Shown piece after piece: positions 3-35,020 of a stretch of 64,000 nucleotides of DNA (within the stretch, counting starts at the first letter, position 1; each line of letters opens with the position of its first letter). Both the position numbers and the translations under genes were made by a program. Below the pieces are notes generated by a model. The model did not search any database and was not told where the DNA came from. It worked only from the letters and a program-made list of their open reading frames with translations. Source of the stretch: an uncultured Chloroflexia bacterium (GTDB lineage: Bacteria > Chloroflexota > Limnocylindria > Limnocylindrales > CSP1-4); the NCBI GenBank assembly GCA_963746845.1, contig CAVVCZ010000005.1:128001-192000 (forward strand), read 5' to 3'.

Positions 3-929
3 GCCGCATCGAGCGATCCGAGCGGCTCGATCGACCGCGCGGGCCGGCTATCGGCGCCGGGCGACGACGACCTCGGTCGATGTCTGCCGGTCCAGCTGCG
101 GGTCAGCCGGCTGGTGGCGCCGCTCCAGCGGGGACGAGAGACGATCGGAATGCTCGCCGTCGGATCCCGGGCCGAGCGGGCGTTCGACGTGGACGACGTC
201 GAGACGCTCGCGTCGCTCGCGGACCAGGCCGCGATCGCCATTGAGCACGCGCGGCTGCAGGATCGTCTCCGCGAGCTGGCCGTCGACTCGGAGCGGGAGC
301 GGATCGCCCGCGAGATGCACGACGGCCTGGCCCAGGTCCTCGGCTACGTGAGCACGAAGTCGCAGGCGGTCGAGCAGCTCCTGGCCGCCGGTCGCATCGA
401 CGCGGCTCGTGCGCAGATGGCGGAGCTGGGTGCGGCCGCCCGATCGCTCTATGTCGACGTCCGCGAGGCGATCCTGGGGTTGCGGAGCCCGATCAGCCCG
501 GGCATCGGGCTCGTCGGCGCGATCGAGGACTACGGCGAGCGGTTCGCCGACGCCGCGAAGATCGGGGTCAAGGTCGTTGCGACGCCGACGGCACGCGCGA
601 CGCATCTCGGACCGGGCGTCGAGGCGAACGTCTTCCGGATCGTCCAGGAGAGCCTCACCAACGTCCGAAAGCACGCCGACGCGGCCCGGGTGGTCGTCCG
701 TCTTGACCGGGACGGCGATGACCTGCGGGTCGAGATCAGCGACGATGGCCGGGGGTTCCCGGCTGCGGCGGCGACCGAAGGCGACTGGCCCCGGTACGGG
801 CAGGCGGCAATGCGCGAGCGCGCGGCCGCGATCGGCGGGCGGCTCGAGTGGTCGAACGGGGACGACGGCGGTGGCATGGTGACGCTCGCCGTGCCGGTCG
901 CCTCCGGCGCCGATGCGGTCGCGTCCTGA
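3..929 (+). CDS. Sensor histidine kinase (GAF + HisKA_3 + HATPase, NarX/DosS-like), 5' truncated by window edge
   Basis: Frame open from base 3; ERERIAREMHDGLAQ H-box, ESLTNVRKHA N-box, DDGRGF G-box; GAF-like segment upstream. Confidence 0.9.
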   Translation, partial: AASSDPSGSIDRAGRLSAPGDDDLGRCLPVQLRVSRLVAPLQRGRETIGMLAVGSRAERAFDVDDVETLASLADQAAIAIEHARLQDRLRELAVDSERERIAREMHDGLAQVLGYVSTKSQAVEQLLAAGRIDAARAQMAELGAAARSLYVDVREAILGLRSPISPGIGLVGAIEDYGERFADAAKIGVKVVATPTARATHLGPGVEANVFRIVQESLTNVRKHADAARVVVRLDRDGDDLRVEISDDGRGFPAAAATEGDWPRYGQAAMRERAAAIGGRLEWSNGDDGGGMVTLAVPVASGADAVAS

Positions 930-1591
930 TGCGCATCCTGATCGCCGATGATCACGCGCTCTTCCGGGACGGCGTTGCCTCCCTGCTCGACGCCTGGGGC
1001 CACACGGTGGTCGGTCAGGCCGCGGACGGCAGGGCAGCGGTCGCCCTCGTGGACGCGCACCTGCCGGACCTGGTGCTGATGGACGTGCGCATGCCGGAGA
1101 TGACGGGTCTCGAGGCCACACGTCGGATCGGCGCGACGCACCCGGACGTCGCGATCGTCATGCTGACCGTGTCGGAGCAGGAGGACGACCTGTTCGAGGC
1201 GATCCGGGCCGGCGCACGCGGCTACCTGCTGAAGAGCCTCGAAGGGGCCCAGCTCCGTTCGATGATCGACGCCGTCGCCCGCGGCGAAGTGGCGATCGCG
1301 CCCTCGACGGCATTCCGGATCATCCGGCTCTTCGCCGAACCCAACGCCGCCGGGAGCGGGTCCGCCGCCAGCTTGAGCGCCGGAGGCGATCGCCGGCTGA
1401 CGCAGCGCGAGCGCGACGTCCTCGAGCTGGTGACCGCGGGGCTCCGGAACAAGGAGATCGCCGCCCGTCTGGGAATCACCGAGAACACGGTGAAGTTCCA
1501 CCTCCGGAACATCCTCGAGAAGCTCCATGCCGTCAGCCGGACGGAGCTCGCGACGCGGGCGATGCGCGAGGGCCTCGTCCGGGGCGACTGA
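929..1591 (+). CDS. NarL/LuxR-family response regulator
   Basis: MRILIADDH...LMDVRMP receiver, LTQRERDVL...NKEIA...TVKFH HTH; TGATG overlap with kinase stop. Confidence 0.93.
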   Translation: MRILIADDHALFRDGVASLLDAWGHTVVGQAADGRAAVALVDAHLPDLVLMDVRMPEMTGLEATRRIGATHPDVAIVMLTVSEQEDDLFEAIRAGARGYLLKSLEGAQLRSMIDAVARGEVAIAPSTAFRIIRLFAEPNAAGSGSAASLSAGGDRRLTQRERDVLELVTAGLRNKEIAARLGITENTVKFHLRNILEKLHAVSRTELATRAMREGLVRGD

Positions 1592-1612
1592 GCGCGGCCG
1601 TCCGCGGGCCGA

Positions 1613-1701
1613 CGTGCCGTTTGGACGTCGTGCCCTAGTCGAAAGGATGGGGCCCCCCGGGCCGATCGAACCTATGCCGGGGGCGGTCCGCCTTCGATGC
1701 T
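1613..1701 (+). promoter_or_regulatory. Promoter with tandem DosR/OsdR-like boxes (1613-1628, 1635-1650, 1658-1673) and -10-like GATGCT (1696-1701)
   Basis: cgggccgatcgaacct matches AGGGCCGATCGGCCCT at 13/16; same spacing to the -10 recurs at three other promoters. Confidence 0.5.
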
Positions 1702-1732
1702 CTGCCGACAGTCAGGTCGACGGAGGCGGGTC

Positions 1733-3679
1733 ATGGGCTATCGCATCGACATCGATCACGGTGGCTGCATCAACTGCGGGATCTGCATGGACGTGTGCCC
1801 GGTCGAGGCGCTCGACATGAGCCGACCGCTGGCGCCGGGGATCGAGACCGGCCAGGGGCCGGCCCGGCCGATGCCGTGGACGATGGAGCATCCGGTCCAG
1901 GTGGGTGAGTGCATCGGCTGCCAGATCTGTGTCCGGGAATGCCCCGTCGGGGTGGTGAGTCTGGCCAGCCAAACCGGTTCGACCGAGCTGGCTCCGCGAC
2001 AGGGACCCGTCCATCGACCCCCGACGAACGACGCCGGCTGGTCGGCCCTGTCGTCGGTCACGCTCGAGTCGCTCAAGCCGTCACACCCGTCGCCGTGGGG
2101 CGACCTGTTCCAATGGGCGACCAACGAACGGTCGGCTGCCGGTCCCGACGGGGTGTCGCCGATCGAGGGCCGGCAGGCACCGCAGGCGCCCTGCCAGACG
2201 GCCTGCCCGGCCGGCACCGACGCCGGACGGTATGTCGGGCTGGTCGCCCAGGGTCGCTTCGACGACGCCTATGCCGTCGCGGCCGAGGTCAACCCGTTCC
2301 CGTCGGTCTGCGGCTGGATCTGCACGGCGCCGTGCGAAGCGGCCTGCCGGCGTGGCGTCCTCGACGAGCCGATCTCGATCCGGACCATCAAGCGGTTCGC
2401 GACCGAGCACGGGACCCTGCCACCCGTCACGGCCCCGACGGTCAAGCGCGCGGGTCGCGTGGCGATCGTCGGCGGCGGACCGGCCGGGATGTCGGCCGCC
2501 TACTACCTGGCCCGCCTGGGCTATCCCGTGACGGTGTTCGAGGCGATGCCGGTGCCGGGCGGGATGATGGCGATCGGGATCCCCGCCTATCGCCTGCCGC
2601 GCGACGTCCTGCAGGCCGAGATCGCACGGATCGTCGGGCTCGGTGTCGACCTTCGCCTGAACGCAGCCATGGGACGCGACTTCACCCTCGGCGATCTCCA
2701 GAGCGACGGGTACGCGGCGATCTTCCTCGCCACGGGCGCGTCGAAGAGCCGACGCCTCGGCGTACCGGGCGACGAGGCGGGCGGTGTGGTCCCGGCCACG
2801 CTCTTCCTGAAGCAGGTGAATCTCGGCGAATCGCCGCGGCTCAGCGGTCCGGTGGTCGTCGTCGGCGGCGGCAGCACCGCGATGGACGCCGCCCGGTCGG
2901 CCCTCCGGAGCGGCGCGAGCTCGGTCGTCGTGGCCTATCGCCGGCGACGGACGGACATGCCCGCGCAGGTCGAGGAGATCGAGGCCGCCGAGCGCGAGGG
3001 GATCGAGATCCGGACAGAGCTGGTCGTCGACGAGGTCGTGGTCCGTGACGGGGCGGCGGTCGCCCTCCGCTGCACGGAGGGCGGGCCGGCGGCCCGGGTC
3101 GTCGACCTGCCGGCCCGCACGGTCCTCGTCGCGATCGGCGAGGAGCCGGACCCGTCGATCCTGCCCGAAGGGACCGGGATCGAGATCAGCGGCTGGGCCG
3201 GTGTCGTCGCCGACGCCCGAACCCTCTCGACCGGCCAGGTCGGGGTCTTCGCGGGGGGCGACGTCGTCTCGGGCCCGAAGACGATCATCGACGCGGTCGC
3301 GGCGGGTCGCCGGGCGGCCGGCTCGATCCACGGCTACCTGGCCGGTGTCGCCGACCCCGAGGCGGAGATCCTGCGGACCGTCCGCTACCCGACCCTGCAC
3401 GAGGCGACGCTGACCGTCGACCTGACCGCACGGCCGCGGGCCCATCCCGCGCTCAACGTCGTCGATCCCGCGTCATTCGCGCCGACACAGGCCGGATACG
3501 AGCCCGCGATCGCGGTCGGTGAGGCGGGGCGCTGCTTCCGCTGCGACGCCGTCGATCGATGCGCGAGCGTCCACGTCCTCGGCGGCCGGGGTCCCGACGA
3601 TCGGCCGGCCGTCCCGCATGCGCCGACGTTTCCCGGCCCGGCTCCGGCGAGCCCCGCAGTCCCAGGAGGTGTGCAATGA
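1733..3679 (+). CDS. Fe-S flavoprotein: N-terminal 2x[4Fe-4S] ferredoxin + GltD/SudA-like FAD/NAD(P)H oxidoreductase
   Basis: CINCGICMDVCP and CIGCQICVRECP; PCQTACP...CGWICTAPCEAAC; GGGPAG, GGGSTAMD, GGDV motifs; C-terminal RCFRC; GGAGG RBS at 1722. Confidence 0.88.
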   Translation: MGYRIDIDHGGCINCGICMDVCPVEALDMSRPLAPGIETGQGPARPMPWTMEHPVQVGECIGCQICVRECPVGVVSLASQTGSTELAPRQGPVHRPPTNDAGWSALSSVTLESLKPSHPSPWGDLFQWATNERSAAGPDGVSPIEGRQAPQAPCQTACPAGTDAGRYVGLVAQGRFDDAYAVAAEVNPFPSVCGWICTAPCEAACRRGVLDEPISIRTIKRFATEHGTLPPVTAPTVKRAGRVAIVGGGPAGMSAAYYLARLGYPVTVFEAMPVPGGMMAIGIPAYRLPRDVLQAEIARIVGLGVDLRLNAAMGRDFTLGDLQSDGYAAIFLATGASKSRRLGVPGDEAGGVVPATLFLKQVNLGESPRLSGPVVVVGGGSTAMDAARSALRSGASSVVVAYRRRRTDMPAQVEEIEAAEREGIEIRTELVVDEVVVRDGAAVALRCTEGGPAARVVDLPARTVLVAIGEEPDPSILPEGTGIEISGWAGVVADARTLSTGQVGVFAGGDVVSGPKTIIDAVAAGRRAAGSIHGYLAGVADPEAEILRTVRYPTLHEATLTVDLTARPRAHPALNVVDPASFAPTQAGYEPAIAVGEAGRCFRCDAVDRCASVHVLGGRGPDDRPAVPHAPTFPGPAPASPAVPGGVQ

Positions 3680-4308
3680 CCCCGGAACAGGTCTCGGGCT
3701 TCTTCGATGCCGGCGAGAGCTTCATCGAGGGGACGATCGCGGCCGCCCTCGTCGTGCTCTGGACGCTCGCGGTGGCGATGCATCTCGGCCGACCGTACAT
3801 GGTCCGGAACACCGGCAAGTTCACGCTCCGGCTGGGCGCGGACCTGTGGTGGATCATCTACGTCGCCCTGCGCGACCTGATCCTCGTCCAGGTCCTCCTC
3901 GGCAGCTTCATCTTCTTCTACCCCGATGTCGTCACGGGCCAGGACCTGCCGATCACCGGCGGTCTTGCGGCCGTCTGCGCCTTCGCGGCGCTCCTGATCA
4001 AGCTCATGACGAAGGGCGATGCCGACGTCAACGGCTATCGCTGGCAGGTGATCCTCATCGGGCTCGGCGCGGCCCTGTACATCACGCCGTACTTCCTCGG
4101 GACCCAGATGACGGAGCTGACCGGTCAACGGGTCGACGTGATCATGCCGTTGCTCGTCAGCTCGAAGAACCCCGACCTCGCGCTGCCGCTGTGCTACCTG
4201 TCGGCGATCCTCGCGGGCATCTGCGGCGTGATCGCGGTCGTCTACAACCTGCGCGGAACGAATCGTCGCCGGCCGATCGAGTCGGCGCCGGAAGGAGCGA
4301 ACCGATGA
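3676..4308 (+). CDS. Uncharacterised polytopic membrane protein (paralog A)
   Basis: About 5 hydrophobic segments; AGGAGG RBS; ATGA coupling to upstream gene; similar to next gene. Confidence 0.8.
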   Translation: MTPEQVSGFFDAGESFIEGTIAAALVVLWTLAVAMHLGRPYMVRNTGKFTLRLGADLWWIIYVALRDLILVQVLLGSFIFFYPDVVTGQDLPITGGLAAVCAFAALLIKLMTKGDADVNGYRWQVILIGLGAALYITPYFLGTQMTELTGQRVDVIMPLLVSSKNPDLALPLCYLSAILAGICGVIAVVYNLRGTNRRRPIESAPEGANR

Positions 4309-4943
4309 GCGGCGACGATCTCGCAACCGCCCTGACCACCGGGGCCTCGGCCTGGCTGGTGCTGTCGATCGCGGCTGTCCTCCCGATCCTGTGGGCGTTC
4401 GCGCTCGTCCTGCACTTCGCTCGTCCCTACGTGTTGCGGTTCCTGCGGCTGCTGACCCTCCGCTTCGGGGGCGACGTCTGGTGGCTGTCCTATGTCCTGT
4501 TCCGGGATGCGCTGCTGGTCATCACCCTCGGGTTGAGCATGGTCTTCCTGATGCCGAACCTCTACCTGAAGGTCGGCCTCCCGATCACCGCACCCTTCGC
4601 GGCGGTCCTCCTGTTCTGGGCGCTCGTCGTCAAGCTGATCCGCGACGCAGACGACGACCCGGCCGCCTTCCGGCTCGTCAGCGCCCTGCTGGTGGTCGCC
4701 TCGGTCCTGTACATCGTTCCGCAGGTCTACGGCATGGAAGCGGCCGACCAGGAATACCTCGGCAGCCTGCCGAGCACGCTGGTCAGCACCACGAACCTCG
4801 CCCTCGCCCGGCCGATCCTGTGGATCAGCATCGGCCTGTTCGCCCTGACCGGGGCGGCGCTGTTCGTCCGGTTCCTCGTCAACCTCGGCCGGAGCGAGGC
4901 GTCCGCTGACGACGCGGTGGAGGAGACGCGCATCGCAGCCTGA
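4305..4943 (+). CDS. Uncharacterised polytopic membrane protein (paralog B)
   Basis: ATGA coupling; shares H-x2-RPY, TLR-x-G-x-D-x-WW, Y-x3-RD and LPIT motifs with paralog A. Confidence 0.8.
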   Translation: MSGDDLATALTTGASAWLVLSIAAVLPILWAFALVLHFARPYVLRFLRLLTLRFGGDVWWLSYVLFRDALLVITLGLSMVFLMPNLYLKVGLPITAPFAAVLLFWALVVKLIRDADDDPAAFRLVSALLVVASVLYIVPQVYGMEAADQEYLGSLPSTLVSTTNLALARPILWISIGLFALTGAALFVRFLVNLGRSEASADDAVEETRIAA

Positions 4944-5206
4944 CCACGCCTCGCGCCCGGATGGGACCGGGCGGGCCTCCGCCCGGTCCCGCTCAGCTCG
5001 CCCAGTTCGACCCCCGGCGCGCCCGATCGGATCGTCCGATCTCGCACGCCGCCGGGAGTCACTCCCATCCCGCCGCACGTTCCGCCGATTTCGGAATCCG
5101 GAATCGGACCGGCGACCGCGGAACGAGGGTGAGTTCCTGTGGCGTTCGATCTCGGACGAGATCGGAAACGCGGGCGAGGCCAGGGGTTCGCCGAAGAGGC
5201 GGCCCG

Positions 5207-6499
5207 CTACGACCCCCGACGCGCCAACCGATCCCGGAGCCGGAACCACTCGCCGGCGAACGGCAGGAACCACGGCCGGCCCTCGTACGGCGCCGGCACG
5301 AGCGGGAAGGACAGCTTCGCGAGCGCCGGCGCCGAGCCCCCGCCGATCCACTCCCCGATCGCCGTCCCGAGCGCGGTCATCAGCGCGACACCGGTCCCGC
5401 AGCAGCCCATCGCGTAGGTGATGCCATCCTTGCGCCCGACGTGCGGCATCCGATCGAACGTGAACCCGACGTTGCCGCCCCAGGCGTAGTCGACGCGGAG
5501 GCCGGCGAGCTGCGGATGGACCTCGAGCATCCCCTTGTGGAGGATCGCCGCGGTGTGGTCGACGTTCGTCGGCAGGAAGCTCGCCCGGCCGCCGAAGATC
5601 ATCCGGCGGTCCTCGGACACGTGCCAGTAGTAGAGGAAGTTCTTCGTGTCGAAGAAGGCCCGGCCCCGCGGCGAGAGGGTCCGTGCCAGCTCCTCGGGGA
5701 GCGGCTCGGTCGCGATGATGTAGCTCCCGATCGGGATGATCCGCCGGCGGAGCGACGGCACGACCCCGTCGGTGTAGCCGTTCGTCCCGACGACGACCTC
5801 CTTCGTCAGGATCGCGCCGCGGCTCGTCTCGACGACGAGCCGGCCGTCCGCCTGGCGCCGGACCGTCCGCGCCCGGACGCCCTCGTGGAGGTCCGCGCCG
5901 GCGCGATCGGCGGCCGCGACCAGTCCGGCGAAGTACTTGCCGGGGTGGAGCAGCCCGCTCGGCGGGAAGACCAGCCCGCCGTGGTAGAACGTCGAGCCGA
6001 TCTCGGTGGCGAGCTCGTCCTTCGGGACGAACGTCGCCTCGATCCCGAATCTGCGGAGCGTGTCCACGGACGCCCGGAGCTCGTCGACGTGCGACGGCCC
6101 CCACGCGAGGTCCAGGTAGCCGCACTCCCGGAACTCGCAGTCGATCGCCTCCTCGGCGATCAGCCGCTTGACGAGGTCGTAGGCGTCGAGCGTCTCGCGG
6201 AACAGCGCCCGGCCGGTCTCCTCGCCGTATCGGTCGATCAGCTCGGCGGGGCCCCACTTGTACCCGGGGTGAACGATCCCACCGTTGCGGGTCGACCCGC
6301 CGAACCCGAGGCTCTCCGCCTCGAGCAGGGTGACGGCGGCCCCACCGCGAGCCAGCGCACGGGCCGCATTGATCCCGGTGTATCCGCCGCCGATGACGAC
6401 GACGTCCGTGACATCCGGGAGGGGCCGGTCGCGGCGCGACGGAAGCGCGGGCATCGTCGTGTGCCAGTACGGCCGCCGCTCGTAGTCGCGGTTCAGCAC
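5207..6499 (-). CDS. FAD-dependent oxidoreductase, PuuB/DadA-like (gamma-glutamylputrescine oxidase family); start uncertain (6499 or 6523)
   Basis: VVIGGGYTG, GGSTRNGG, GTNGY, WGG...FDRMPH motifs. Confidence 0.85.
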   Translation of the reverse strand: MLNRDYERRPYWHTTMPALPSRRDRPLPDVTDVVVIGGGYTGINAARALARGGAAVTLLEAESLGFGGSTRNGGIVHPGYKWGPAELIDRYGEETGRALFRETLDAYDLVKRLIAEEAIDCEFRECGYLDLAWGPSHVDELRASVDTLRRFGIEATFVPKDELATEIGSTFYHGGLVFPPSGLLHPGKYFAGLVAAADRAGADLHEGVRARTVRRQADGRLVVETSRGAILTKEVVVGTNGYTDGVVPSLRRRIIPIGSYIIATEPLPEELARTLSPRGRAFFDTKNFLYYWHVSEDRRMIFGGRASFLPTNVDHTAAILHKGMLEVHPQLAGLRVDYAWGGNVGFTFDRMPHVGRKDGITYAMGCCGTGVALMTALGTAIGEWIGGGSAPALAKLSFPLVPAPYEGRPWFLPFAGEWFRLRDRLARRGS

Positions 6500-6537
6500 G
6501 CTCGTCGGGCCGGAGGTGGGCACGTCAGGCGGCGGGC

Positions 6538-7976
6538 TCAGCCGGCCGCGTCGTCGTCGATCGAGGCTTCGTAGGCCATGCGGCCACCAGCGACCGTCAG
6601 CAGCACCTGGCCCGCCAGGTCGCGGCCGCGCAATGGCGTGTTCTTGCCGCGCGACGCCAGGGCATCCGGCTCCACCCGCCAGGTCGTCGACCGGTCGAAG
6701 ATGACCAGGTCCCCGGGCTGACCCTCCACCAGACCCGGGCCCGGGCGATCTCCCCAGCGCGAGCCCAGGACGCGGGCCGGACCGGCCGTCAACGCCTGGA
6801 CTGCGCGGGCAAGCGGGACCAGGCCCGCGTCGACCATCGCGAGGACGACGCCCAACGCCGTCTCGAGCCCGCTGATCCCGTTGGCCGCCAGCCCGAACTC
6901 GACGTCCTTGTCGACGCTCGTGTGCGGCGCGTGGTCCGTGGCGATCGCGTCCGCGGTCCCGTCCAGCAGCGCCACCCGGCACGCGGCCGCGTCGGCGACC
7001 GAGCGGAGCGGCGGGTTGACCCGGAGCGATGATGCATACGGCGCCGCGACGAGCGCGCCCGGGCCATCCGCCCACGGGTCGCCGGTCCCATCCCAGGACC
7101 AGCGTCGCGCGCCCGCCAGCCACTCGTCGGAGAGGGCGAGATGATGCGGTGTTACGTCGCACGTCACCGGCAGCCCCGCCGCCTTCGCTCGGCGGACCAG
7201 GTCCATCGACCCCGCGGTCGAGAGGTGGGTCAGGTGGAGCCGGGCGCCCGGCACGTCGCGGACGACGTCCGCCAGCAGCGCCAGGTCGCGGGCGACGGCG
7301 GTCTCCTCGGCCGCCGCCGGCCAGCCCCGGAGCCCGAGGACGGTCGCGACATAGCCGTCGTTCGCCTCGGCGCCGGCGGTCAATCCTCGATCCTCGGCGT
7401 GGTCGACGATCGGCAGCCCGAGCGCGCCCGCGTACGCGAGCGCGTTCCGCATCAGGGCCGGCGAGGTGACCGGCGCCCCATCGTCGCTGAACCCGACGAC
7501 CCCGGCGTCGGCCAGCTCACCGAGCGCCGCAAGGGTCTCGCCGGCGCGTCCGGCGGAGATCGCGCCCCAGGCCAGCGCCCGGACCGGCGATCCGGAGGCC
7601 GCGGCTGCCGCGGTGACCCGGGCCAGCACCGCCGGGTCGTCGAGCGACGGCGTCGTGTTCGGCATCGCGCAGACGGTCGTGAACCCGCCGTGGGCGGCGG
7701 CCGCGAGCCCGCTGGCCAAGGTCTCCGCGTCCTCGTTGCCCGGCTCGCGGAGGTGGACGTGGAGGTCCACGAAGCCCGGGGCGACGATCACCCCGCGGTC
7801 GTCGATCCCGTCGGCCTCGCCGGCGTCGAGCCACGTCACGGCCTCGAGGACGCCGTCGGAGACGACGATCTCGCCCGGTCCCTCGCGCCCGGATGCCGGG
7901 TCCACGAGCCAGGCCCGCGAGATCTCGAGGTCCGCGACGACCCGCCCGACCTCGCCGATCGTCGGGGCGATGGCGC

Positions 7977-7980
<4 letters not shown>
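6538..7980 (-). CDS. pyrC: Dihydroorotase
   Basis: DLHVHLREPG, AMPNT, DHAED, ATDHAPH; GTGA-coupled to pyrB. Confidence 0.93.
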
Positions 7981-9676
<1,696 letters not shown>

Positions 9677-10458: not shown

Positions 10459-12321
10459 TCAGCGGATGACGTACACGTTGTCGGGCAGGGTCTCGATCGT
10501 GCCGGCGCCCTGATCGGTCCATGCCAGCACGAGGATCCGGCCTCGGCCAGTGCCGTCGGCGGCCGGCTCGGCCCAGACGAGCTTGCCGTCCGAGATCGCA
10601 AAGCCGGCCGTGGCGCGCTGGGCGTCGAGGAGCGGCTTCTTCAGGTCGACACGGCCGTCGAAGGGGTCGACGTCGTAGAGGCTCAGCGTGCCGACGCTCG
10701 CGTCGTGCGGATCGGCGATCCAGACGGCCAGCTTCGACCCGGTCGTGTCCCAACGGGCGTCCCAGTCGGTGATCGGGCCGGACGCGATCGTCGTCTCGTG
10801 GCGGATCTCCTCCTGGTTGCCGGTCAGGGGCGTCGCGTCCGGGGCCCCGCTCGCGGTGACGCCGGCGGCCGTCCAGTCGCCGATGACCAGGCGCCCGTCG
10901 GCAGGGAGGTCGACGGGGCTGCCGTCGGCACGCCGGAGCGACCCCGTCCAGTACACCGCACGCCGCTCGTTCGGGTCGACCGACGGGCGCCAGGTGCTGC
11001 CGGTCTGCGGCAGCGAGACCGTCTCGCCGGTCCCCGGATCCATGACGAACGACGCTCCACTGCGATCGCCGGTCGCGGCGTCGCCGGTCTCGGACGTCGA
11101 GCTGCCGACGACCCGGTCGTGTAGTGCCCACGACCCGAACGCCGACCGATGATCGGTGGTGATGGCCCGGGCCGTCTTGTCCCCGACCTTCCAGACGTAG
11201 ATGTCCGGACCGGCCGATCCATCGGCCGGGCGGGCCGTGAACGCGAACCACTCGCCGCTCGGCGAGTACGCGGCCGACTGGCCGACGATGACGACGTCCT
11301 TCGCGATCTGGACCGTCCCGCCCGGCGACGTCGACGGCGACACCTCGACGGACGGGGTCGGGCTGATCGGTGGGGTGGCGCTCGGCGGCGGAGTCTCCGT
11401 GTTGCTGTCGGAGGGGGTCGGGGTCGCGCTCGGAGCGGTGCTCGGGCTCGTCGCCGGGGTCTTCGACGGATCGGCGCTCGCGGGAGGCGTCGGCGTGACG
11501 GTCGGGCTCGCCGTCGTGTCCGGCGTCGCCGATGGCGTCGGCGACGCATCGTGGCTCGGGGATGGGGTCGGCGACGGCGCGGGGGCCAGGTCGACGACCG
11601 CGATCGACGCCTGCTCGCTCGTGCCGGGGCGATTGACGACGATCAGCTGCTGACCGTTGGCGGAGCCGAAGACCGTCTGCGGCTCCATTGCGAAGTCGAC
11701 GGGCTGGTCCTGCACCGGCGCCGCAGCCGCACACGGGTCGTTCTCGTTTGGACAGACCGCCCGGACGTCTGCCTCCTTTCGGTGATAGCTGCCGTCCGCG
11801 TCCCTGCTGATCCACTGGACGTGCTGGCCGACCGGGATCGGGGTCGCGAACGCCACGTCGGACGACGCGGGACCCCCGCTGGCAGCAGACGCTCCGGCGT
11901 CGGGAAGCGCTGTCGGGCCGCCGTCGACGAGAAGCCGGGAGGAGGTCAGCGTCCCGACGACGACGGCCACGACGAGCGCCGCGGCAAACACAGGAATGAA
12001 GATGCGACGACGACGAGGCCCGCCGGACGCCGCCTCTTGATCACGGAACCGGGATTCGTGCTCGATCGCCGCTGCGGTCCGCGCCCAGAGGTCGCGCGGT
12101 GGGATCGGCTGCTGGTCGCGCATCGCGCGCAGCTCGCTGTGCTGGGTCTCGTAGGCGACGGCCGCGGCGCGACAGTCCGCGCAACCGGCGAGGTGCCCGT
12201 CCAGCCACTCCGCCTCCTCCGGCTCCAGCTCCCCGTCCAGCCGATCGGACAGGGCGGCCTGCGCCCGGGCGTGGTCCGTCGCCCAGTCGTCGGGCCGGCG
12301 GGAGCGTCGGCGGAACGTCAT
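10459..12321 (-). CDS. Zn-finger (HxxxCxxC) anti-sigma factor with TM helix, Pro/Thr linker and extracellular TolB-like repeats
   Basis: HLAGCADC motif; TM IFIPVFAAALVVAVVV; AYSPSGEWFAF repeats; ATGA-coupled to sigma gene. Confidence 0.8.
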   Translation of the reverse strand: MTFRRRSRRPDDWATDHARAQAALSDRLDGELEPEEAEWLDGHLAGCADCRAAAVAYETQHSELRAMRDQQPIPPRDLWARTAAAIEHESRFRDQEAASGGPRRRRIFIPVFAAALVVAVVVGTLTSSRLLVDGGPTALPDAGASAASGGPASSDVAFATPIPVGQHVQWISRDADGSYHRKEADVRAVCPNENDPCAAAAPVQDQPVDFAMEPQTVFGSANGQQLIVVNRPGTSEQASIAVVDLAPAPSPTPSPSHDASPTPSATPDTTASPTVTPTPPASADPSKTPATSPSTAPSATPTPSDSNTETPPPSATPPISPTPSVEVSPSTSPGGTVQIAKDVVIVGQSAAYSPSGEWFAFTARPADGSAGPDIYVWKVGDKTARAITTDHRSAFGSWALHDRVVGSSTSETGDAATGDRSGASFVMDPGTGETVSLPQTGSTWRPSVDPNERRAVYWTGSLRRADGSPVDLPADGRLVIGDWTAAGVTASGAPDATPLTGNQEEIRHETTIASGPITDWDARWDTTGSKLAVWIADPHDASVGTLSLYDVDPFDGRVDLKKPLLDAQRATAGFAISDGKLVWAEPAADGTGRGRILVLAWTDQGAGTIETLPDNVYVIR

Positions 12322-12968
12322 CGGGCGCCGCGGGACGGGTGATTTGCCGCGTTCCGCGCGTCCGCCTGTGCGTCGGCGACCGCCTCGGCGGTGCGCTCGG
12401 CGGCAAGCGCCTGGCGGAGGCTCTCGCGAGCGCGGGTCAGGAGCGCGCGGGCCGCCACGTGGCTGACGCCGAGCGCCGCGGCGAGCTCGAGGCCTGTGAG
12501 GTCGTGCAGCTCTGCGAGGAGGAGGGCGGCGCGCTGGCGCTCCGGGATCCGCTCGAGCGCCCGCTGCATGTCCGACGACAGATGCGCGTCCATGACCAGA
12601 CGCTCCGTGGACGGCGCGGCGCCGTGGCTCTCGCCGGTCCACGGCAGGAAGCGGACGATCTTCTGGCGGCGGATGTGGTCGAGCGCGACGCGGTGGGCGA
12701 TCTGGTACAGCCAGGCCCGGGCGTTCTCCGGCTTCTCGAGGGTGTCGTAGTTCCGGTAGGCCTTGACGAACGCGTCCTGCGTGAGGTCCGCGGCCAGCTC
12801 GGGATCGCGGAGCATCCGGATCAGGTAGGCGTAGATCTCGCCGTGATGGGCCGCGAACAGCTCCTCGACGAAACCCGCTGCGGCGTCCCGCTCCCAGGCG
12901 CCGCTCATGGCCGCGCCCCGACCGAATCCCCGGCTCGTGCCGATCCGGTTGTCGAGCGCGCCGACCAT
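12318..12968 (-). CDS. ECF RNA polymerase sigma factor
   Basis: DLTQDAFVKAY, AWLYQIA, ELAAALG...RARESL; GGAGG RBS. Confidence 0.92.
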   Translation of the reverse strand: MVGALDNRIGTSRGFGRGAAMSGAWERDAAAGFVEELFAAHHGEIYAYLIRMLRDPELAADLTQDAFVKAYRNYDTLEKPENARAWLYQIAHRVALDHIRRQKIVRFLPWTGESHGAAPSTERLVMDAHLSSDMQRALERIPERQRAALLLAELHDLTGLELAAALGVSHVAARALLTRARESLRQALAAERTAEAVADAQADARNAANHPSRGAR

Positions 12969-13036
12969 GGAGCCTCCGGCTGTCGCGGGGATGTGGACGG
13001 AGCGCAAAGGTGTGGGCGCGCGCTCCTGGGCCCTGA

Positions 13037-13062
13037 GACGCGAGGCATCCGATCGGTGTGAC
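13037..13062 (-). promoter_or_regulatory. Putative ECF-dependent (autoregulatory) promoter GTCACA-N16-CGTC
   Basis: Minus strand gtcaca ccgatcggatgcctcg cgtc, about 70 nt upstream of the ECF start. Confidence 0.55.
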
Positions 13063-13089
13063 GCCGTCCCTCCCTCGGCGTGGTGGCCA

Positions 13090-14097
13090 TCAGCCGGTGG
13101 CCTCCGCCGCGCCGACCGGGGGTCGGCGTGTCCGCGTCAGCAGCTCCTCCACCGCGTCCTCCGGCGAGACGGGGTTCACCGGGAGGCCGGTCCCCAGCTC
13201 GAGGCCCGCGATCTCGCGGAGCCGCGGGTGGATCTCCCAGTGCCAGTGGTAGGTGGCGTCGACCTGCTCGCGGAGCGGCGACGTGTGAAGAACGAGGTTG
13301 TATGGCGGGCCGTCGAGCGTGGCGGCCAGCGCGCCGAGCACCTGGCGAAGCGCCTCGCCGGCAGCCGTCACGGCTCCGTCGGTGGCGCGCCCGAAGTCGG
13401 CGTCATGGTGGCGAGGCACGATCCAGACCTCGAACGGCGAGCGCGATGCGAACGGGGCGAACGCGACGGAGTCCGTGTCCTGCCAGATCAGCCGGTCGGG
13501 GCGGATGGCCTCGGTCCGGACGAGCCGGCACCACGGGCACTCGCCCTCGCGGATCACGAACCGCGCGGCGCCGCCCAGCTCCTCGGCGATCCGATGGGGG
13601 ATCTGCGGGAGGTCGTACAGGTCGAGGCAGAGATGGTTGGTCCGGGCACCGGCCTGCGCGCCCCAGTTCTGGACGACCTGGAGATGGTCCGTCAGGGCCG
13701 TTCGCCGGGCATCGGCGAGGGCGCCGCGGACCTCGGTCAGCAACGCCACGATCGTCTCCGAGCCGACCGCGTGGAGCGGCCGGTGCTCGCCGGGTGGCGC
13801 GACGATCGTCCGCCAGCTGCCACTGGCGCGGACGTCGCCGAGCGAGACCTGGGCCACGTTCGCCTCGAGCTCGCGGGCCTGGTCGCCGGTCCCGATGACG
13901 TGGAACGCGAAGTCCTTCAGCGTCCGGACGCGGACGCCGTCCCCGGCCGGGAGCCGGCAGTTCTGGCAGTCGCCGCCGTCGTCGATCGGGTCGGCGGCAC
14001 GGGCGAACCGGTCGCGATGGAAGGCACGGTCGACGACCGTGGCGACCCACCAGCCGGTGATCGCGTCCTTGCGCAGCTCGAAGAGTCCCGCCGCCAC
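13090..14097 (-). CDS. GalT/ADP-glucose phosphorylase-like HIT-superfamily protein with altered active-site motif
   Basis: ELRKD.ITG.WV, CxxC twice, PFASRSPFE, YHWHWEIHPRL...GLELGTG..NPV.PE; HxHxQ replaced by HLCLD. Confidence 0.82.
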   Translation of the reverse strand: MAAGLFELRKDAITGWWVATVVDRAFHRDRFARAADPIDDGGDCQNCRLPAGDGVRVRTLKDFAFHVIGTGDQARELEANVAQVSLGDVRASGSWRTIVAPPGEHRPLHAVGSETIVALLTEVRGALADARRTALTDHLQVVQNWGAQAGARTNHLCLDLYDLPQIPHRIAEELGGAARFVIREGECPWCRLVRTEAIRPDRLIWQDTDSVAFAPFASRSPFEVWIVPRHHDADFGRATDGAVTAAGEALRQVLGALAATLDGPPYNLVLHTSPLREQVDATYHWHWEIHPRLREIAGLELGTGLPVNPVSPEDAVEELLTRTRRPPVGAAEATG

Positions 14098-16465: not shown

Positions 16466-17614
16466 CTAGACGCGACCCCGGGGCACGGTCAGCCAGTACG
16501 TCTTGTTGAACACGATCTTGCCGAGATGCCAGAGCCGGTTGGGCTTCGGCGGGTCCGGCGGATGGTCGTAGTCGAAGCGGAGCAGCGTGCCCTTGCCGTC
16601 GCCGATCTCGAAGAAGCACATCACCCGGCCGAGGTAGTCGCCGCGCGCGTGCTGGACGGGTCGGCCCTCGATCCCGGCCAGGATCCGCTCGACGACGACC
16701 GGTGCCTCGAAGTGGGCGGTGGACCCGGCCTTCGAGAGCGGCAGGTCCGTCGCGTCGCCGAGGGCGAACACGTTGGGCCGGCCACCGACCTCGAGGGTCG
16801 TGCGGTCGGTCGGCAGCCAGCCGCCCGGCGCCGGAGCGAGCTTCGAGTCGATCAGGTACCGGGCTCCGTGATGCGGCGGCACGAGGATCAACAGGTCGTA
16901 CGGGAGCTCCTCGCCCTCGAGGCTCTGCACGACCTTCCGGGCCGGGTCGATTGCCTCGACGTTGAAGAACGTGTGGAGCTCGATGCCCCGGTCGGCCAGG
17001 ACCGGCGTCGCCATGTCCGAGACGCTCTCGATCGTGAACGCCCGGCCGATCGGGGAGCAGAAGTGGATCTCGGTCCGGTCGCGGAGATGGCGATCGCGGA
17101 GCTCGGACTCGATCAGGAACGCCACCTCGAGGGGGGCGGGCGGGCACTTGTAGGGCATGCCCGCGATGCCGATGACGATCCGACCACCGTCGAACGCGTC
17201 GAGCGCGTGACGCAACCGCCCGGCCGCCTCGGCGCTGTAGAAGTGGTGGGCCTCCTCATCGAAGTGATCGATCTCCTCGGGCGCGATCCGGGAGCCCGTG
17301 GCGAGGACGAGGTAGTCGTACGGCAGCGCGCGACCATCCGCGAGGAGGACGACCTGCGGGTCGGCGGCGACCCGGATCACCTCACCGATCACGAGGGTCA
17401 CCCGCTTGTCCAGGAGGGATCGCTCCGGGCGCTGGAGGTGCTCCGCGTGCTCGTTGCCGAGCGCGATGTACATGAAGCCGGGCTGGTAGACGTGCTGCCC
17501 GGTCTCGTCGACGACGGTCAGCTCCGTGTCCGGGCGGCCGTGCAGGCGACGAGCCAGCAGGTTCGCGACGATCGTCCCGCCGACGCCTCCGCCCAGGATC
17601 AGGATGCGGGGCAT
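16466..17614 (-). CDS. Sulfide:quinone oxidoreductase-like flavoprotein (type III SQR/FCSD-like)
   Basis: GGGVGG, HVYQPG, YKCPPAPLE, GDATDLP.SKAG, VMCF, amphipathic C-terminus. Confidence 0.82.
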   Translation of the reverse strand: MPRILILGGGVGGTIVANLLARRLHGRPDTELTVVDETGQHVYQPGFMYIALGNEHAEHLQRPERSLLDKRVTLVIGEVIRVAADPQVVLLADGRALPYDYLVLATGSRIAPEEIDHFDEEAHHFYSAEAAGRLRHALDAFDGGRIVIGIAGMPYKCPPAPLEVAFLIESELRDRHLRDRTEIHFCSPIGRAFTIESVSDMATPVLADRGIELHTFFNVEAIDPARKVVQSLEGEELPYDLLILVPPHHGARYLIDSKLAPAPGGWLPTDRTTLEVGGRPNVFALGDATDLPLSKAGSTAHFEAPVVVERILAGIEGRPVQHARGDYLGRVMCFFEIGDGKGTLLRFDYDHPPDPPKPNRLWHLGKIVFNKTYWLTVPRGRV

Positions 17615-17623
17615 GGCGCGCTC

Positions 17624-17873
17624 CTACCGTGCCTTCTGGACGACGATCTCGTCGTAGCCGTCGAACTCGATGACGCTGATCAGCCGGTGGCCTGCCTTGT
17701 CGACCCACTTCGGGATGTCCGTCCGGGATCCGCGATCCGAGGAGCGGACGGCGATGATGTCGCCGACCTCGACTCTCGCGGATCGCCCGGATCAGCTCCA
17801 TCAGGGGGCCCGGGCAGTAGCTGCCGCGGGCGTCGACGAGGCGGCTGATCGTGAACGGCTGGGTTGCGGCCAT
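17624..17873 (-). pseudogene. tusA: TusA-family sulfur carrier with a +1 frameshift near 17770 (possibly a sequencing error)
   Basis: DARGSYCPGP N-terminus continues in another frame as EVGDIIAVRSSDRGSRTDIPKWVDKAGHRL...VQKAR*. Confidence 0.8.
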
Positions 17874-17883
17874 CGACGGCCTC

Positions 17884-18459
17884 CTAGATGAAGAGGGAGG
17901 CGTCGGCCTCGGTCATGATCGCGATGGCCGTCGCGGCTCCGGCGGGCTCGCCCATCCCGGGGATGAGGTCCTCGCGCGTGATCCCCAGGAGGTCCATCGT
18001 CATCTGGCACGGCACGAACTCGACGCCGAGGGCCTGGGCCGCCTCGAGGAGCTCGCGCGGGCTGGCCACGCCGTACTGGCGGGACAGTCTGCGCATCATC
18101 CACGGGCCCATGCCGAGGAAGTTCATCTTCGTCAGGTGCAGGTGATCGATCCCCGGACGCTGCATCGCGGCGAGCATCCGCTGCATCCAGTTCTCGCCGG
18201 TGATGCGGACGCCGTCGCGGACGAAGGGCAGCAGGCCCCAGAACGTGACGAACACCCGCGCGCGCACGCCCGAGGCGGCGGCGGTCGATGACAGGATCAG
18301 CATCGGCCAGACCCGGTCGAGCTCGCCCGACCAGCTGACGATCACCAGCTCCTTCGTGGCGACCGCGGTGTCGTCCGCGGCCTGCGGCGCGACCTCGGTG
18401 ACCGGTGGGGCGACCGGCGGCTTGACCGCGCGTGTGCGATCGACGGTGGCGGTGGTCAT
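17884..18459 (-). CDS. DsrE2-like (DsrE/DsrF/DrsH) sulfur relay protein
   Basis: FVTFWGL, MNFLGMG, VPCQMTMDLLG. Confidence 0.85.
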   Translation of the reverse strand: MTTATVDRTRAVKPPVAPPVTEVAPQAADDTAVATKELVIVSWSGELDRVWPMLILSSTAAASGVRARVFVTFWGLLPFVRDGVRITGENWMQRMLAAMQRPGIDHLHLTKMNFLGMGPWMMRRLSRQYGVASPRELLEAAQALGVEFVPCQMTMDLLGITREDLIPGMGEPAGAATAIAIMTEADASLFI

Positions 18460-18466
18460 GGCGCCC

Positions 18467-18703
18467 TCACTTGTGGCGGATGACGAAGCGATAGGTCGCC
18501 CCGTCGGACGTGGACTCGAGCAGCTGATGCCCGGTCGTCCTCGACCAGGCATCGAAGTCGCGGACAGCGCCGGCGTCGGTCGCGAGGACCTCGACGACGT
18601 CGCCCGGCTGGACGGACCGCATCCCCTGTGCCGTCTTGACGATCGGCATCGGGCAGGTCAGTCCGCGCGCATCGATGAGCATCGCGATTGCGTAGACCGG
18701 CAT
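18467..18703 (-). CDS. tusA: TusA-family sulfurtransferase
   Basis: DARGLTCPMP, VLATDAG..DF.AW...GH. Confidence 0.9.
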   Translation of the reverse strand: MPVYAIAMLIDARGLTCPMPIVKTAQGMRSVQPGDVVEVLATDAGAVRDFDAWSRTTGHQLLESTSDGATYRFVIRHK

Positions 18704-18715
18704 GAGGCCCTCCCT

Positions 18716-19676: not shown

Positions 19677-20933
19677 TCAAGGCCATTCCGCCCGATCGGC
19701 TCGACGAAGCGGCAGGCCGGATGTCCGCCGGCGGCCCGCGCGCGGAAGAACTGCGCCCGAATGCGCCGCGGCGGCTCCTGATGCGGGGGGTGTGGTCGGG
19801 CTCGGCGCATCGGTGACCCTCGCGACGACCTGATCCGCGATCACGACGTCTTCCCGGGCCGTGATCCGCACGATGGCCGGCCCCGAGGTGGTTCCCTGGA
19901 CCCCGTCGCCGGCGCTGACGCGCTCCGGGCCGGCCGGGTTGCCGATCCGGAGGCGCTCGCCGATCCGGGTGCGAATGGTCGGCGCGTGCTCGCCGATCCC
20001 GCCGGTGAACACGATCGCGTCGAGCCGGGGCAGGCTGGTCGTGCTCGCGGCGATTCCTGCCGCCGCGCGACGCACGAACATCTCCAAGGCGAGCGTGGCA
20101 CCCGGCTCGCCGGCGGCCTCCAGCTCCAGGAGGCGCGCCATGTCGGCGGTGCCACCGATCGCGACGAGCCCGGAGCGGTGATCGAGATCCGCTTCGATGT
20201 CGGCCGCCGGATGCCCGTCCCGCAGGAGCCGGAAGATGATCCCCGGATCGATCGACCCGGCGCGGGTGCCCATCATCAGCCCCTCGAGCGGCGTCATCCC
20301 CATCGAGGTGTCGACCGACCGGCCGCCCTCGACCGCCGTGACCGAGCAGCCGCCGCCGAGGTGGGCGACGACGAGGCACAGGTCCTCGACCGGGCGGCCG
20401 AGCAGCTCCGCCGCCCGCCGTGTCGACCACGCGACCGACAGGCCGTGGAACCCGTACCGCCGGATCCCGGCCCGATCCCACGCGTCCGGCACGGGGTAGC
20501 GACGGGCGGCCTCGGGCAGGGTCGCGTGGAAGGCGGTGTCGAAGCCGGCGATCTGGGGGACGTCCGGCAGCAGTCGACGCGAGGCCCGCATCGTCGCGAC
20601 GGCGAGGGGGTTGTGCAGGGGCGCCAGGTCATCAAGCGACTCGATCGCCGCGATCACCTCGTCGTCCAGCCCGACGGGACCGGTGAACCGGCTTCCACCA
20701 TGGACGACCCGGTGGCCGACCCCGTCGATCGGCCCGCCCGCAGCCTCCACGACCGTGCGGACCGTCGCCGACACCCGGTCCGCCGTGTCCGCAGCGCCCG
20801 AAGCGTCCGTCGCGTCGGTCGCGTCCGACGCGACCCAGTCGACCGTCCGATCGAACGAACGCGGCCGGTCGGGCGGCTCGATCACGCTCGCCTTCAGGTT
20901 CGACGAGCCGGCGTTCAGGACGAGGATGCGCAT
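19677..20933 (-). CDS. ackA: Acetate kinase
   Basis: LVLNAGSS, GHRVVHGG, APLHN, FDTAFH, RYGFHG, HLGGG, FTGGIGE. Confidence 0.94.
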   Translation of the reverse strand: MRILVLNAGSSNLKASVIEPPDRPRSFDRTVDWVASDATDATDASGAADTADRVSATVRTVVEAAGGPIDGVGHRVVHGGSRFTGPVGLDDEVIAAIESLDDLAPLHNPLAVATMRASRRLLPDVPQIAGFDTAFHATLPEAARRYPVPDAWDRAGIRRYGFHGLSVAWSTRRAAELLGRPVEDLCLVVAHLGGGCSVTAVEGGRSVDTSMGMTPLEGLMMGTRAGSIDPGIIFRLLRDGHPAADIEADLDHRSGLVAIGGTADMARLLELEAAGEPGATLALEMFVRRAAAGIAASTTSLPRLDAIVFTGGIGEHAPTIRTRIGERLRIGNPAGPERVSAGDGVQGTTSGPAIVRITAREDVVIADQVVARVTDAPSPTTPPASGAAAAHSGAVLPRAGRRRTSGLPLRRADRAEWP

Positions 20934-20952
20934 CGGGAGCCTCCGACGAGCG

Positions 20953-23310: not shown

Positions 23311-23406
23311 CGACGGTCCCCTCCGGCTGGATCGGCGGCTCCGGGAATCCGGCGCGCCCGACGGAAGTATCCGCCGGGCGGTGGTCTCGGTCGCGGTTGG
23401 CGGGAG

Positions 23407-23429
23407 CGCCGGTCGCGCTGCGACCGGCG
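23407..23429 (-). terminator. Hairpin (10-bp stem) after small ORF
   Basis: cgccggtcgc-gct-gcgaccggcg. Confidence 0.4.
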
Positions 23430-23433
23430 TTGG

Positions 23434-34252: not shown

Positions 34253-34959
34253 GCCCGGCCGTCCAGCGGGATCCGGGCGCCGTTGATCGCGGCGGCCTCG
34301 TCCGAGCAGAGGTAGCGCAGCGTCGCGACGATCTCCTCGGGGGTCGTCCAGTTGGCGTTCTTCGGGCTCGGCTCGCGCTCTCGCGCGTGCTCGGTGTCGA
34401 TCGCCCGGATCGCGACGACGTTGACCGTCACACCGGCCGCCGCCACCTCCCTGGCGAGGACGCGCAGGAGCGTCTCCTGGGCGGCCTTCGAGGTGGCGTA
34501 TGTCCCGGCCCGAGCCGGTGCTGTGGCCGTCGTGAACGACGTGATGGCGATCATCCGGCCCCAGCCCCGCTCGACCATGCCCGGGACCACGGCGCGGGCG
34601 ACGTTCAGGGTCGTCCAGACATGCTGGTCGAGCATGAACCGGAGATCGTCCGGCGACAGCTCCGTGATCGGCGCTCCGGGCACGAACCCGCCGACGAGAT
34701 GGAGGACGACGTCGACCCGGCCGAACCGCTCGGTGACGACGGCGACCGCCGCGGCGGCCTCGTCCGCGATCCGCAGATCCGCCTTCACGCCGACCCATCG
34801 GTCGTCCTCGATCCCGGCTTCGACGGCGACCGCCGCGAGACGGGTGGCATCCCGGCCGACGAGCCCGAGGCGGGCACCATCGGCGGCGAACGCCCGGGCG
34901 GCGACGCGGCCGACGGCGCCCGCCGCGCCGGCGATCAGGACGACGCGCTCCGCTGCCAT
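34249..34959 (-). CDS. Short-chain dehydrogenase/reductase
   Basis: [18 protein letters not shown] motifs. Confidence 0.88.
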
Positions 34960-35020
34960 CGGCTCAGGATACGGGCGCAGCCTCCGAGCGCCCGGATCGG
35001 TCCGGCATGATGCACCGACG

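Follow-up and report, generated by a model that had tools for sequence, protein, structure and literature searches.

To what acceptor might an iron-sulfur (Fe-S) flavoprotein deliver its electrons when its gene is followed directly by those of two paralogous membrane proteins? This question is raised by a locus of an uncultured bacterium of the Limnocylindria (Chloroflexota), a class abundant in soil and freshwater and represented here by metagenome-assembled genome (MAG) records only. The locus lies in a stretch of 64,000 nucleotides (GenBank assembly GCA_963746845.1, contig CAVVCZ010000005.1, positions 128,001 to 192,000), hereafter the window, with a G+C content of 68-76%. An earlier note made from the letters of this DNA, which we call the original prediction, had described a flavoprotein (A) and two membrane proteins (B and C), encoded by three genes joined through ATGA overlaps, as a candidate membrane redox complex. 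We indeed found all three genes in place, with ATGA at both junctions, together with an upstream two-component system that the original prediction had overlooked and that is part of the conserved module. Our tentative answer, to which we assign a probability of about 0.38, is that the module specifies a regulated, membrane-associated oxidoreductase of reduced nicotinamide adenine dinucleotide (phosphate) (NAD(P)H), in which the B/C pair supplies the acceptor site. The module is laid out in the window as follows.

3 to 929, plus strand: histidine kinase gene, its 5' end lost at the window start; Pfam matches to the end of a GAF domain, HisKA_3 and HATPase_c.
929 to 1591, plus strand: gene of a NarL/LuxR-type response regulator; Pfam matches to a receiver and a GerE helix-turn-helix domain (scanned as the open reading frame (ORF) 848-1588, the receiver starting from residue 30).
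1592 to 1732, plus strand: intergenic region, candidate operator and promoter, from an alignment of orthologous upstream DNA.
1733 to 3679, plus strand: gene A, an Fe-S flavoprotein of 648 amino acids (aa); ATG at 1733, stop at 3677-3679.
3676 to 4308, plus strand: gene B, a membrane protein of 210 aa; ATG at 3676 within gcaATGAcc, overlapping the stop of A.
4305 to 4943, plus strand: gene C, a membrane protein of 212 aa and paralog of B; ATG at 4305 within ccgATGAgc, overlapping the stop of B.

The conserved module consists of the kinase, the regulator, A, B and C and nothing else. A scan of 185,579 species genomes yielded 373 stretches encoding a relative, and all synteny counts given here come from the best 80 of these 373, which are Chloroflexota-type (Limnocylindria) MAG loci except for one labelled Sulfotelmatobacter; B identities go down to 62%, and the genes flanking the module vary. 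Searches by tblastn with the window proteins located B and C in 80/80 loci, both paralog clades being kept in every one, and A directly upstream of them in 79/80; the locus without A (L055) is on a contig that begins 293 nt before B. The synteny of the membrane proteins with the flavoprotein is thereby borne out, its single exception lying at a contig end. Kinase and regulator genes are found upstream on the same strand in 71/80 loci; as to the others, seven end too early, L052 holds the regulator only (at a contig edge) and L062 is without both. The 4-base overlap [A/G]TGA between A and B is retained in 74 of the 79 loci holding A, which suggests translational coupling and would fit a stoichiometric co-production of the two proteins. 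The junction between B and C is a 4-base overlap in 24/80 loci, a gap of 3-30 nt in 52/80 and irregular or frameshifted in 4/80. Clustering of all coding-like ORFs in the 80 loci gave no non-module cluster present in more than 27 loci, and the commoner non-module neighbours encode Lhr, Fpg, UvrA, UvrC, MFS transporters and glycosyltransferases. In 16/80 loci (for example at 8956-9741 of L021), C is followed on its own strand by a DUF6941 (PF22091) gene, which is not present in the window.

By its sequence, A is an Fe-S flavoprotein of the NfnB/GltD/StnC class. It begins with a 2x[4Fe-4S] ferredoxin domain containing two CxxCxxCxxxCP motifs (Pfam Fer4 motifs, residues 6-74), followed by a 75-residue Trp-rich linker, by a Fer4_20 domain (PF14691, residues 151-226, E 1.7e-15), whose two [4Fe-4S] motifs precede the flavin part, and by a Pyr_redox_2 domain (PF07992, residues 242-525, E 2.4e-35) that comprises the Rossmann folds for flavin adenine dinucleotide (FAD) and NAD(P)H. 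The C-terminal extension carries RCFRC and then a Pro-rich, poorly conserved tail. Both terminal features named in the original prediction, an N-terminal 2x[4Fe-4S] domain and a C-terminal CxxC, are thus present, and RCFRC is unchanged in 30/30 A orthologs. Since it aligns with RCLECGC of StnC and of 9bov_A, the third Cys being variable, the CxxC is a shared feature of the subfamily and not a special thiol site. C154, C158, C193, C197, C201, C205 and K220 are likewise unchanged in 30/30 orthologs. The best PDB matches of A are Bfu-type NfnA (9n5u_A, E 4.8e-94), 9bov_A (3.4e-93) and StnC (8oh5_C, 7e-84), with further matches to NfnB (4ylf_B, 2.7e-72; 5jca_L, 2.7e-63) and GltD (2vdc_G, 4.2e-53). 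A stays below all curated NCBIfam cut-offs, PRK12771 coming best (434.8 vs 516 bits), with PRK12814 (352.6 vs 916) and gltA (257.1 vs 471.75) also short of theirs. HMMER alignment pairs K170 and R239 of StnC with K220 and R287 of A, both of which are unchanged in 30/30 orthologs. In the report on StnABC (PMC10482914), the StnC module is described as binding NADPH, FAD and two [4Fe-4S] clusters, one of them ligated by K170, and as transferring electrons linearly, without bifurcation. R287, which also corresponds to R201 of NfnB, has a counterpart in the non-bifurcating StnC (PMC10482914), so its conservation in A is compatible with bifurcation as well as with linear transfer.

A has no signal peptide or hydrophobic segment and is therefore cytoplasmic. 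A scan of 22 ORFs in window 1-14.9 kb found no gene resembling GltB, NfnA/SudB or hydrogenase, consistent with the original prediction, and no PreA partner. A is an NAD(P)H-FAD-4x[4Fe-4S] wire without a catalytic end of its own. Compared with NfnB/GltD/SudA-type proteins (StnC 8oh5_C, Bfu-type NfnA 9n5u_A), its residues 150-548 align end to end (E 1e-63 to 5e-94), and the two cluster motifs, the FAD and NAD(P)H folds, the K170/R239 equivalents and the C-terminal RCxxC are common to A and the NfnB/GltD/StnC modules. Unlike in those systems, however, no partner or fused domain of the NfnA, GltB, SudB or NuoG kind was found for A; it has instead its own N-terminal cluster domain and Trp-rich linker, and the membrane-protein genes come next. 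Another known arrangement is that of AegA and YgfT of Escherichia coli, in which an N-terminal polyferredoxin precedes a GltD-like flavoprotein and which have the same order of parts as A. Their NCBIfam models match A over residues ~149-537 and score far under their cut-offs (PRK12769, 197 vs 1003; PRK12809, 172 vs 1154), and their N-terminal part is ~210-230 residues long (the A module starts at model position 214-234) with four clusters, whereas A has two clusters in 75 residues. AegA and YgfT are not known to be coupled to membrane subunits of the B/C kind.

Could A act on its own? It might be a soluble NAD(P)H:ferredoxin-type enzyme, or a pyrimidine-related one (DPD/PreT-like), whose partner is encoded elsewhere, with B and C co-transcribed and unrelated in function. 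A does align with dihydropyrimidine dehydrogenase (DPD; 1h7x_A, E 8.6e-44), the operon in the window adjoins pyrR-pyrB-pyrC and a DAO-family gene, and a PyrK-like gene is located upstream of the kinase in L001 (1039-1902). However, the pyr genes of the window are on the opposite strand, the window's pyr and DAO genes recur with the module in 8/80 loci and a PyrK-like gene near it in 4/80, and on these synteny counts we rejected the pyrimidine-gene link; it looks as if the five-gene module is seated inside a pyrimidine gene cluster in the closest-relative subgroup only. The constancy with which B and C follow A (79/80 loci), and the start-stop overlap in 74/79, also speak against an unrelated function, and we consider a free-standing soluble A unlikely.

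Turning to the membrane proteins, BLASTP aligns B and C with 63/180 identities (35%) at E 4e-27, far past chance, which marks them as paralogs. Both peptides that the original prediction had quoted in calling them clear paralogs were found, as was LPIT in each protein, placed before helix 3 in B. In B the motif RPY...R-x3-D-x-WW-x2-Y-x3-RD occupies the cytoplasmic end of helix 1 and helix 2, and C has the same motifs and the same predicted topology. An AlphaFold2 model of B, built on a 68-row alignment, shows five long helices (predicted local distance difference test (pLDDT) 93.3; predicted template modelling (pTM) score 0.85). With helix limits taken from this model, B has 10 Lys and Arg residues inside (loop 1, loop 3 and the C-terminus) and 2 outside, and these residues are distributed in the same way in C. 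Because of this asymmetry, and because relatives carry a signal peptide and an N-terminal extension, B and C are probably both N-out and C-in, in equal orientation. We would define the new family by a core of ~200 aa with five predicted helices, an N-out topology and the motif R-[PG]-Y...R-x3-D-x-[WF]-W...R-D, which both B and C carry.

B and C belong to no described family, in agreement with the original prediction, which had not recognised them. Neither protein matches a Pfam or NCBIfam model, and 33 diverse relatives scanned singly disclosed no recurrent Pfam family, including none to the NrfD profile at E up to 5. When the B model was compared with 350,542 PDB chains by Foldseek, there were 0 matches at E 0.001 or better; the best reached E 0.17, and template modelling (TM) scores did not exceed 0.35. 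NuoJ, which is similar to B and C in size and likewise has five helices, was the only PDB match of the family profile and was rejected: the match (E 0.069) covers poorly conserved C-terminal helices only, without any family motif, and NuoJ is not among the Foldseek matches listed. NrfD/PsrC-type subunits differ in having eight or more helices, against five in B. Look-ups in the ESM Atlas (B and one archaeal member) returned Chloroflexota clusters only, and a DUF5692 row at 0.81 was too low to follow.

Conservation in the family is concentrated on the cytoplasmic side. D56 and R66 are invariant in the 33 diverse members, and R39, Y41, R52, A55, W59, D67 and P83 are conserved in at least 90% of them; all of these are in loop 1, in the first half of helix 2 or where helix 1 ends on the cytoplasmic side. 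Consistently, the most conserved segments in 77 B and 76 C sequences (those of the window included) are cytoplasmic loop 1 and helix 2. The original prediction had listed an intramembrane His, Arg and Asp as conserved. The Arg and Asp stand, R66 being invariant and D67 conserved in at least 90% of the members, with D56 in addition. The His does not, being present in 17/33 members and lying at a helix end.

This His bears on the idea that B and C form an SdhC/SdhD-like anchor in which H36 of B and H37 of C ligate a bis-His heme b as an electron relay across or into the membrane. B and C contain a single His each, equivalently placed beside an Arg, and it is invariant in a 9-sequence alignment of B, C and 7 close relatives of B. 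Of the 33 diverse members, however, 17 have His at this position, 12 Gln, 2 Tyr and 1 Asn, one sequence being garbled; the Firmicutes and archaeal clades are among those with Gln. By the model helix limits it is situated at the cytoplasmic end of helix 1 and not in the membrane core, and neither fold nor sequence resembles SdhCD, NarI or other cytochromes b. We rejected the bis-His heme on the ground that the His is not family-wide; a heme or metal site built on this residue is unlikely, and a heme-b anchor very improbable. There is no conserved Cys in the family either, and in the absence of conserved Cys or His ligands B and C cannot be relied on to carry hemes or Fe-S clusters.

The family is small and reaches beyond the Chloroflexota. 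A word-seeded protein search with B gave 2982 proteins at E ≤0.001; among the 120 matches listed, identities were 75-90%, and the named ones were 'hypothetical protein' entries of Limnocylindrales/Chloroflexota MAGs. When a profile was run exhaustively against 1.84 billion cluster representatives, 268 clusters reached E ≤0.001, many of them fragments, with 200 at 1e-10 and 69 at 1e-30. A search started from a member with a signal peptide returned 20 matches, including Vulcanibacillus modesticaldus and Limnochorda pilosa (Firmicutes), and one started from the archaeal branch returned 117, of which 8 have an organism name (6 Micrarchaeota/Micrarchaeales, 1 Marsarchaeota and 1 Nitrososphaerota); genomes of Micrarchaeota are small. 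The archaeal branch (P0240, P0296, P0311, P0324, P0399 and others) has RGY for RPY and Gln for the His, and the Firmicutes clade also has Gln at this position. In a quick midpoint-rooted tree with several long branches, B-type and C-type orthologs form separate groups, with the Firmicutes and the archaea placed on the B side. A pair of archaeal members, 41% identical and perhaps from one contig, gives only a hint of archaeal paralog pairs.

Several family members carry additional parts outside the membrane. In P0160, P0166, P0147, P0167, P0275, P0277 and P0278, which come from Firmicutes and other sources, a signal peptide is present and the predicted mature protein has a His near position 4 (DPGH, EGDH, DVGH, NSDH); a long Asp/Glu/His-rich external segment follows, which may be a metal-binding region. 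P0138, P0140 and P0141 have a signal peptide and, ahead of the five-helix core, ~100 further N-terminal residues outside the membrane, perhaps a beta-sandwich, given a weak NPCBM_assoc match in P0138 only (E 0.0033). Apparent A-B, B-C and C-DUF6941 fusions in public protein sets (P0128, P0186, P0195, P0197, P0206, P0219, P0256, P0280, P0281 and P0285) were rejected as Rosetta-stone evidence: good and out-of-frame stretches alternate in them, and they look like frameshifted gene calls of error-prone assemblies.

These observations lead to the most serious alternative to an electron-transferring complex, namely that B and C are a parallel, pseudo-symmetric paralog pair forming an ion or metal transporter or channel, with A as a reductase acting on the transported species or as its redox control, for example a metal or oxyanion reductase tied to import or export. 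The link between A and B/C would then be functional, with no electron-transfer complex. Conserved charges in helix 2 (R66, D67 and D56) where cofactor ligands are not conserved, the signal peptide and His/Asp/Glu-rich outside segment of P0160, P0166, P0275, P0277 and P0278, and the occurrence of the family in archaea including Micrarchaeota all point in this direction. Adjacent paralog pairs are common among small transporters, and one relative of A, SfrB, was at one time described as a component of a soluble Fe(III) reductase. On the other hand, Foldseek matched no solved transporter above noise (best E 0.17, TM ≤0.35), the most conserved polar residues are at the cytoplasmic surface and do not follow a full transmembrane path, the N-termini of B and C in the window are short and without His, and A has no recognisable substrate-reducing domain besides its electron-wire modules. 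A transporter is therefore a possible but, in our view, somewhat unlikely explanation.

We favour a complex of A with B/C because A has neither a catalytic end nor a conserved soluble partner, and because B and C always accompany it. In such a complex, cytoplasmic A would take a hydride from NAD(P)H onto FAD, send electrons one at a time along the pair of [4Fe-4S] clusters in its NfnB/GltD-type module and hand them to the two clusters of its fused N-terminal ferredoxin domain, which would dock at the cytoplasmic face of a B/C hetero-oligomer. B and C would anchor the complex in the membrane and bind a lipophilic acceptor, in the simplest case menaquinone, among the invariant Arg, Asp, Tyr and Trp residues where helices 1-2 reach the cytoplasmic side. 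By analogy only, FrdC/FrdD of E. coli, and SdhC/SdhD more generally, offer such an arrangement, a flavin/Fe-S chain ending at the quinone site of two small related hydrophobic subunits. Sdh/Frd quinone sites are lined by Arg, Asp, Tyr and Trp, and FrdC/FrdD form a cofactor-free anchor of fumarate reductase. B and C differ from these subunits in having five helices each rather than three and in lacking sequence or fold similarity to them, and the heme-ligand His is not conserved. The union of A, B and C in one complex, the direction of electron flow, the acceptor, the regulatory link and the inducing signal are what we infer from these data.

Several points weigh against the favoured oxidoreductase. 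All 80 loci are from one class, and shared ancestry inflates the synteny counts. The tool results show no physical interaction among A, B and C: the structure model of A (from 30 orthologs; mean pLDDT 59.5) holds no docking-surface information, and a complex prediction from residues 1-612 of A, 6-198 of B and 7-199 of C, with a separate alignment for each protein and run without controls, gave ipSAE values of 0.00 and 0.01, which speak neither for nor against a complex. Quinone binding by B and C is pure inference on our part. Firmicutes (Vulcanibacillus modesticaldus, with BHF71_01895, and Limnochorda pilosa) and archaea have members of the family too, so its ancestral role need not be tied to this flavoprotein, and the relatives with His/Asp/Glu-rich or immunoglobulin-like extracytoplasmic extensions fit a transporter or receptor better than a quinone site. 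If no flavoprotein adjoins the Firmicutes and archaeal homologs, then B/C has a function of its own.

GltD/NfnB modules are the NAD(P)H input units of soluble enzymes. We know of no described case in which such a module is wired directly to dedicated membrane subunits, and a narrow, targeted literature search found no such system, which is a weak negative. If A, B and C do form a complex, it would represent a new coupling of the pyridine-nucleotide pool to the membrane in Limnocylindria. It seems distinctly improbable that B and C, as a structurally unprecedented family, form the membrane arm of an NfnB-type NAD(P)H dehydrogenase, reacting with quinone and possibly translocating ions. If they did, a fourth kind would join complex I, NDH-2 and Nqr among the respiratory NAD(P)H:quinone oxidoreductases, one in which a single Fe-S flavoprotein is combined with two pseudo-symmetric five-helix subunits whose buried Arg and Asp are invariant. 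Complex or not, B/C is a compact family with a confident fold without a solved relative and with invariant buried charges, found in bacteria and archaea, and thus an accessible target for structural and functional work.

How might the operon be controlled? In L001 the kinase ortholog is full-length: it starts with two hydrophobic helices joined by a very short loop, after which come GAF, HisKA_3 and HATPase domains. In the window, the ATG of the regulator at 929 shares one base with the stop codon of the kinase (TGATG), and a GGAGG sequence is located 11 nt 5' of the ATG of gene A. MAFFT alignment of the 170 nt upstream of A from the window and 28 loci revealed conserved palindrome-like blocks (GGGCC-N4-GGCCC, a TACCC...GGGTA-like block and CCCnCCCG...CGGGnGGG), which would be candidate sites for the NarL-type regulator, and a conserved GATGCT ~30 nt ahead of the GGAGG ribosome-binding site of A. 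A scan for the sigma-70 consensus gave nothing in the region before A, in DNA of 72% G+C. In the favoured oxidoreductase, the membrane GAF kinase and the NarL-type regulator would activate the operon by way of the conserved palindromes that precede A. A handle on the inducing signal is offered by these operator-like palindromes together with the kinase and regulator, which are conserved as well.

Beyond gene C the window continues with a hairpin and then with the convergent DAO-family gene followed by pyrC, pyrB and pyrR, all on the minus strand.

4962 to 4991, strand unassigned: perfect 13-bp G+C hairpin, 20 nt past the stop of C and before the convergent DAO-family gene.
5210 to 9616, minus strand: DAO-family FAD oxidoreductase, pyrC, pyrB and pyrR genes, convergent with the A-B-C operon.

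The hairpin has a minimum free energy of -35.8 kcal/mol over 70 nt, with a z score of only -1.56 in this G+C-rich DNA. It is a possible terminator without a T tract; a terminator scan found none.

A sulfur-type gene cluster farther along the minus strand (16469-18715) comprises an SQR-like Pyr_redox_2 gene (16469-17623), a DsrE_2-family gene (17887-18657) and, at ~18470-18715, a small ORF that resembles TusA and has a CPMP motif. With such genes in the window, and with SudA-type sulfide dehydrogenases belonging to the family of A, the module might encode an NAD(P)H:polysulfide or sulfur-trafficking complex, and co-occurrence with tusA, dsrE and sqr had indeed been put forward in the original prediction. 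This co-occurrence did not hold up: the sulfur genes are at least 11.5 kb off, with the pyr genes and a sigma/anti-sigma pair in between, and SQR-like, DsrE_2 and TusA-like genes are within the fetched flanks (up to 8 kb per side) in 1/80 loci (L072). No SudB/NfnA-like partner was found in the 22 ORFs of window 1-14.9 kb or in the 80 loci. A role in sulfur metabolism is thus extremely improbable.

Other neighbours in the window include a gene for an ECF-type sigma factor and, after it, a long ORF that contains an anti-sigma zf-HC2 motif (10462-13136, minus strand), and phosphoketolase (XFP) and acetate kinase genes side by side (19680-23433, minus strand). MttB-family (trimethylamine methyltransferase-like) genes are located at 34316-36541 on the plus strand and at 41576-43606 on the minus strand, and genes nearby encode a beta-eliminating lyase, a tryptophan 2,3-dioxygenase and a protein that binds cNMP.

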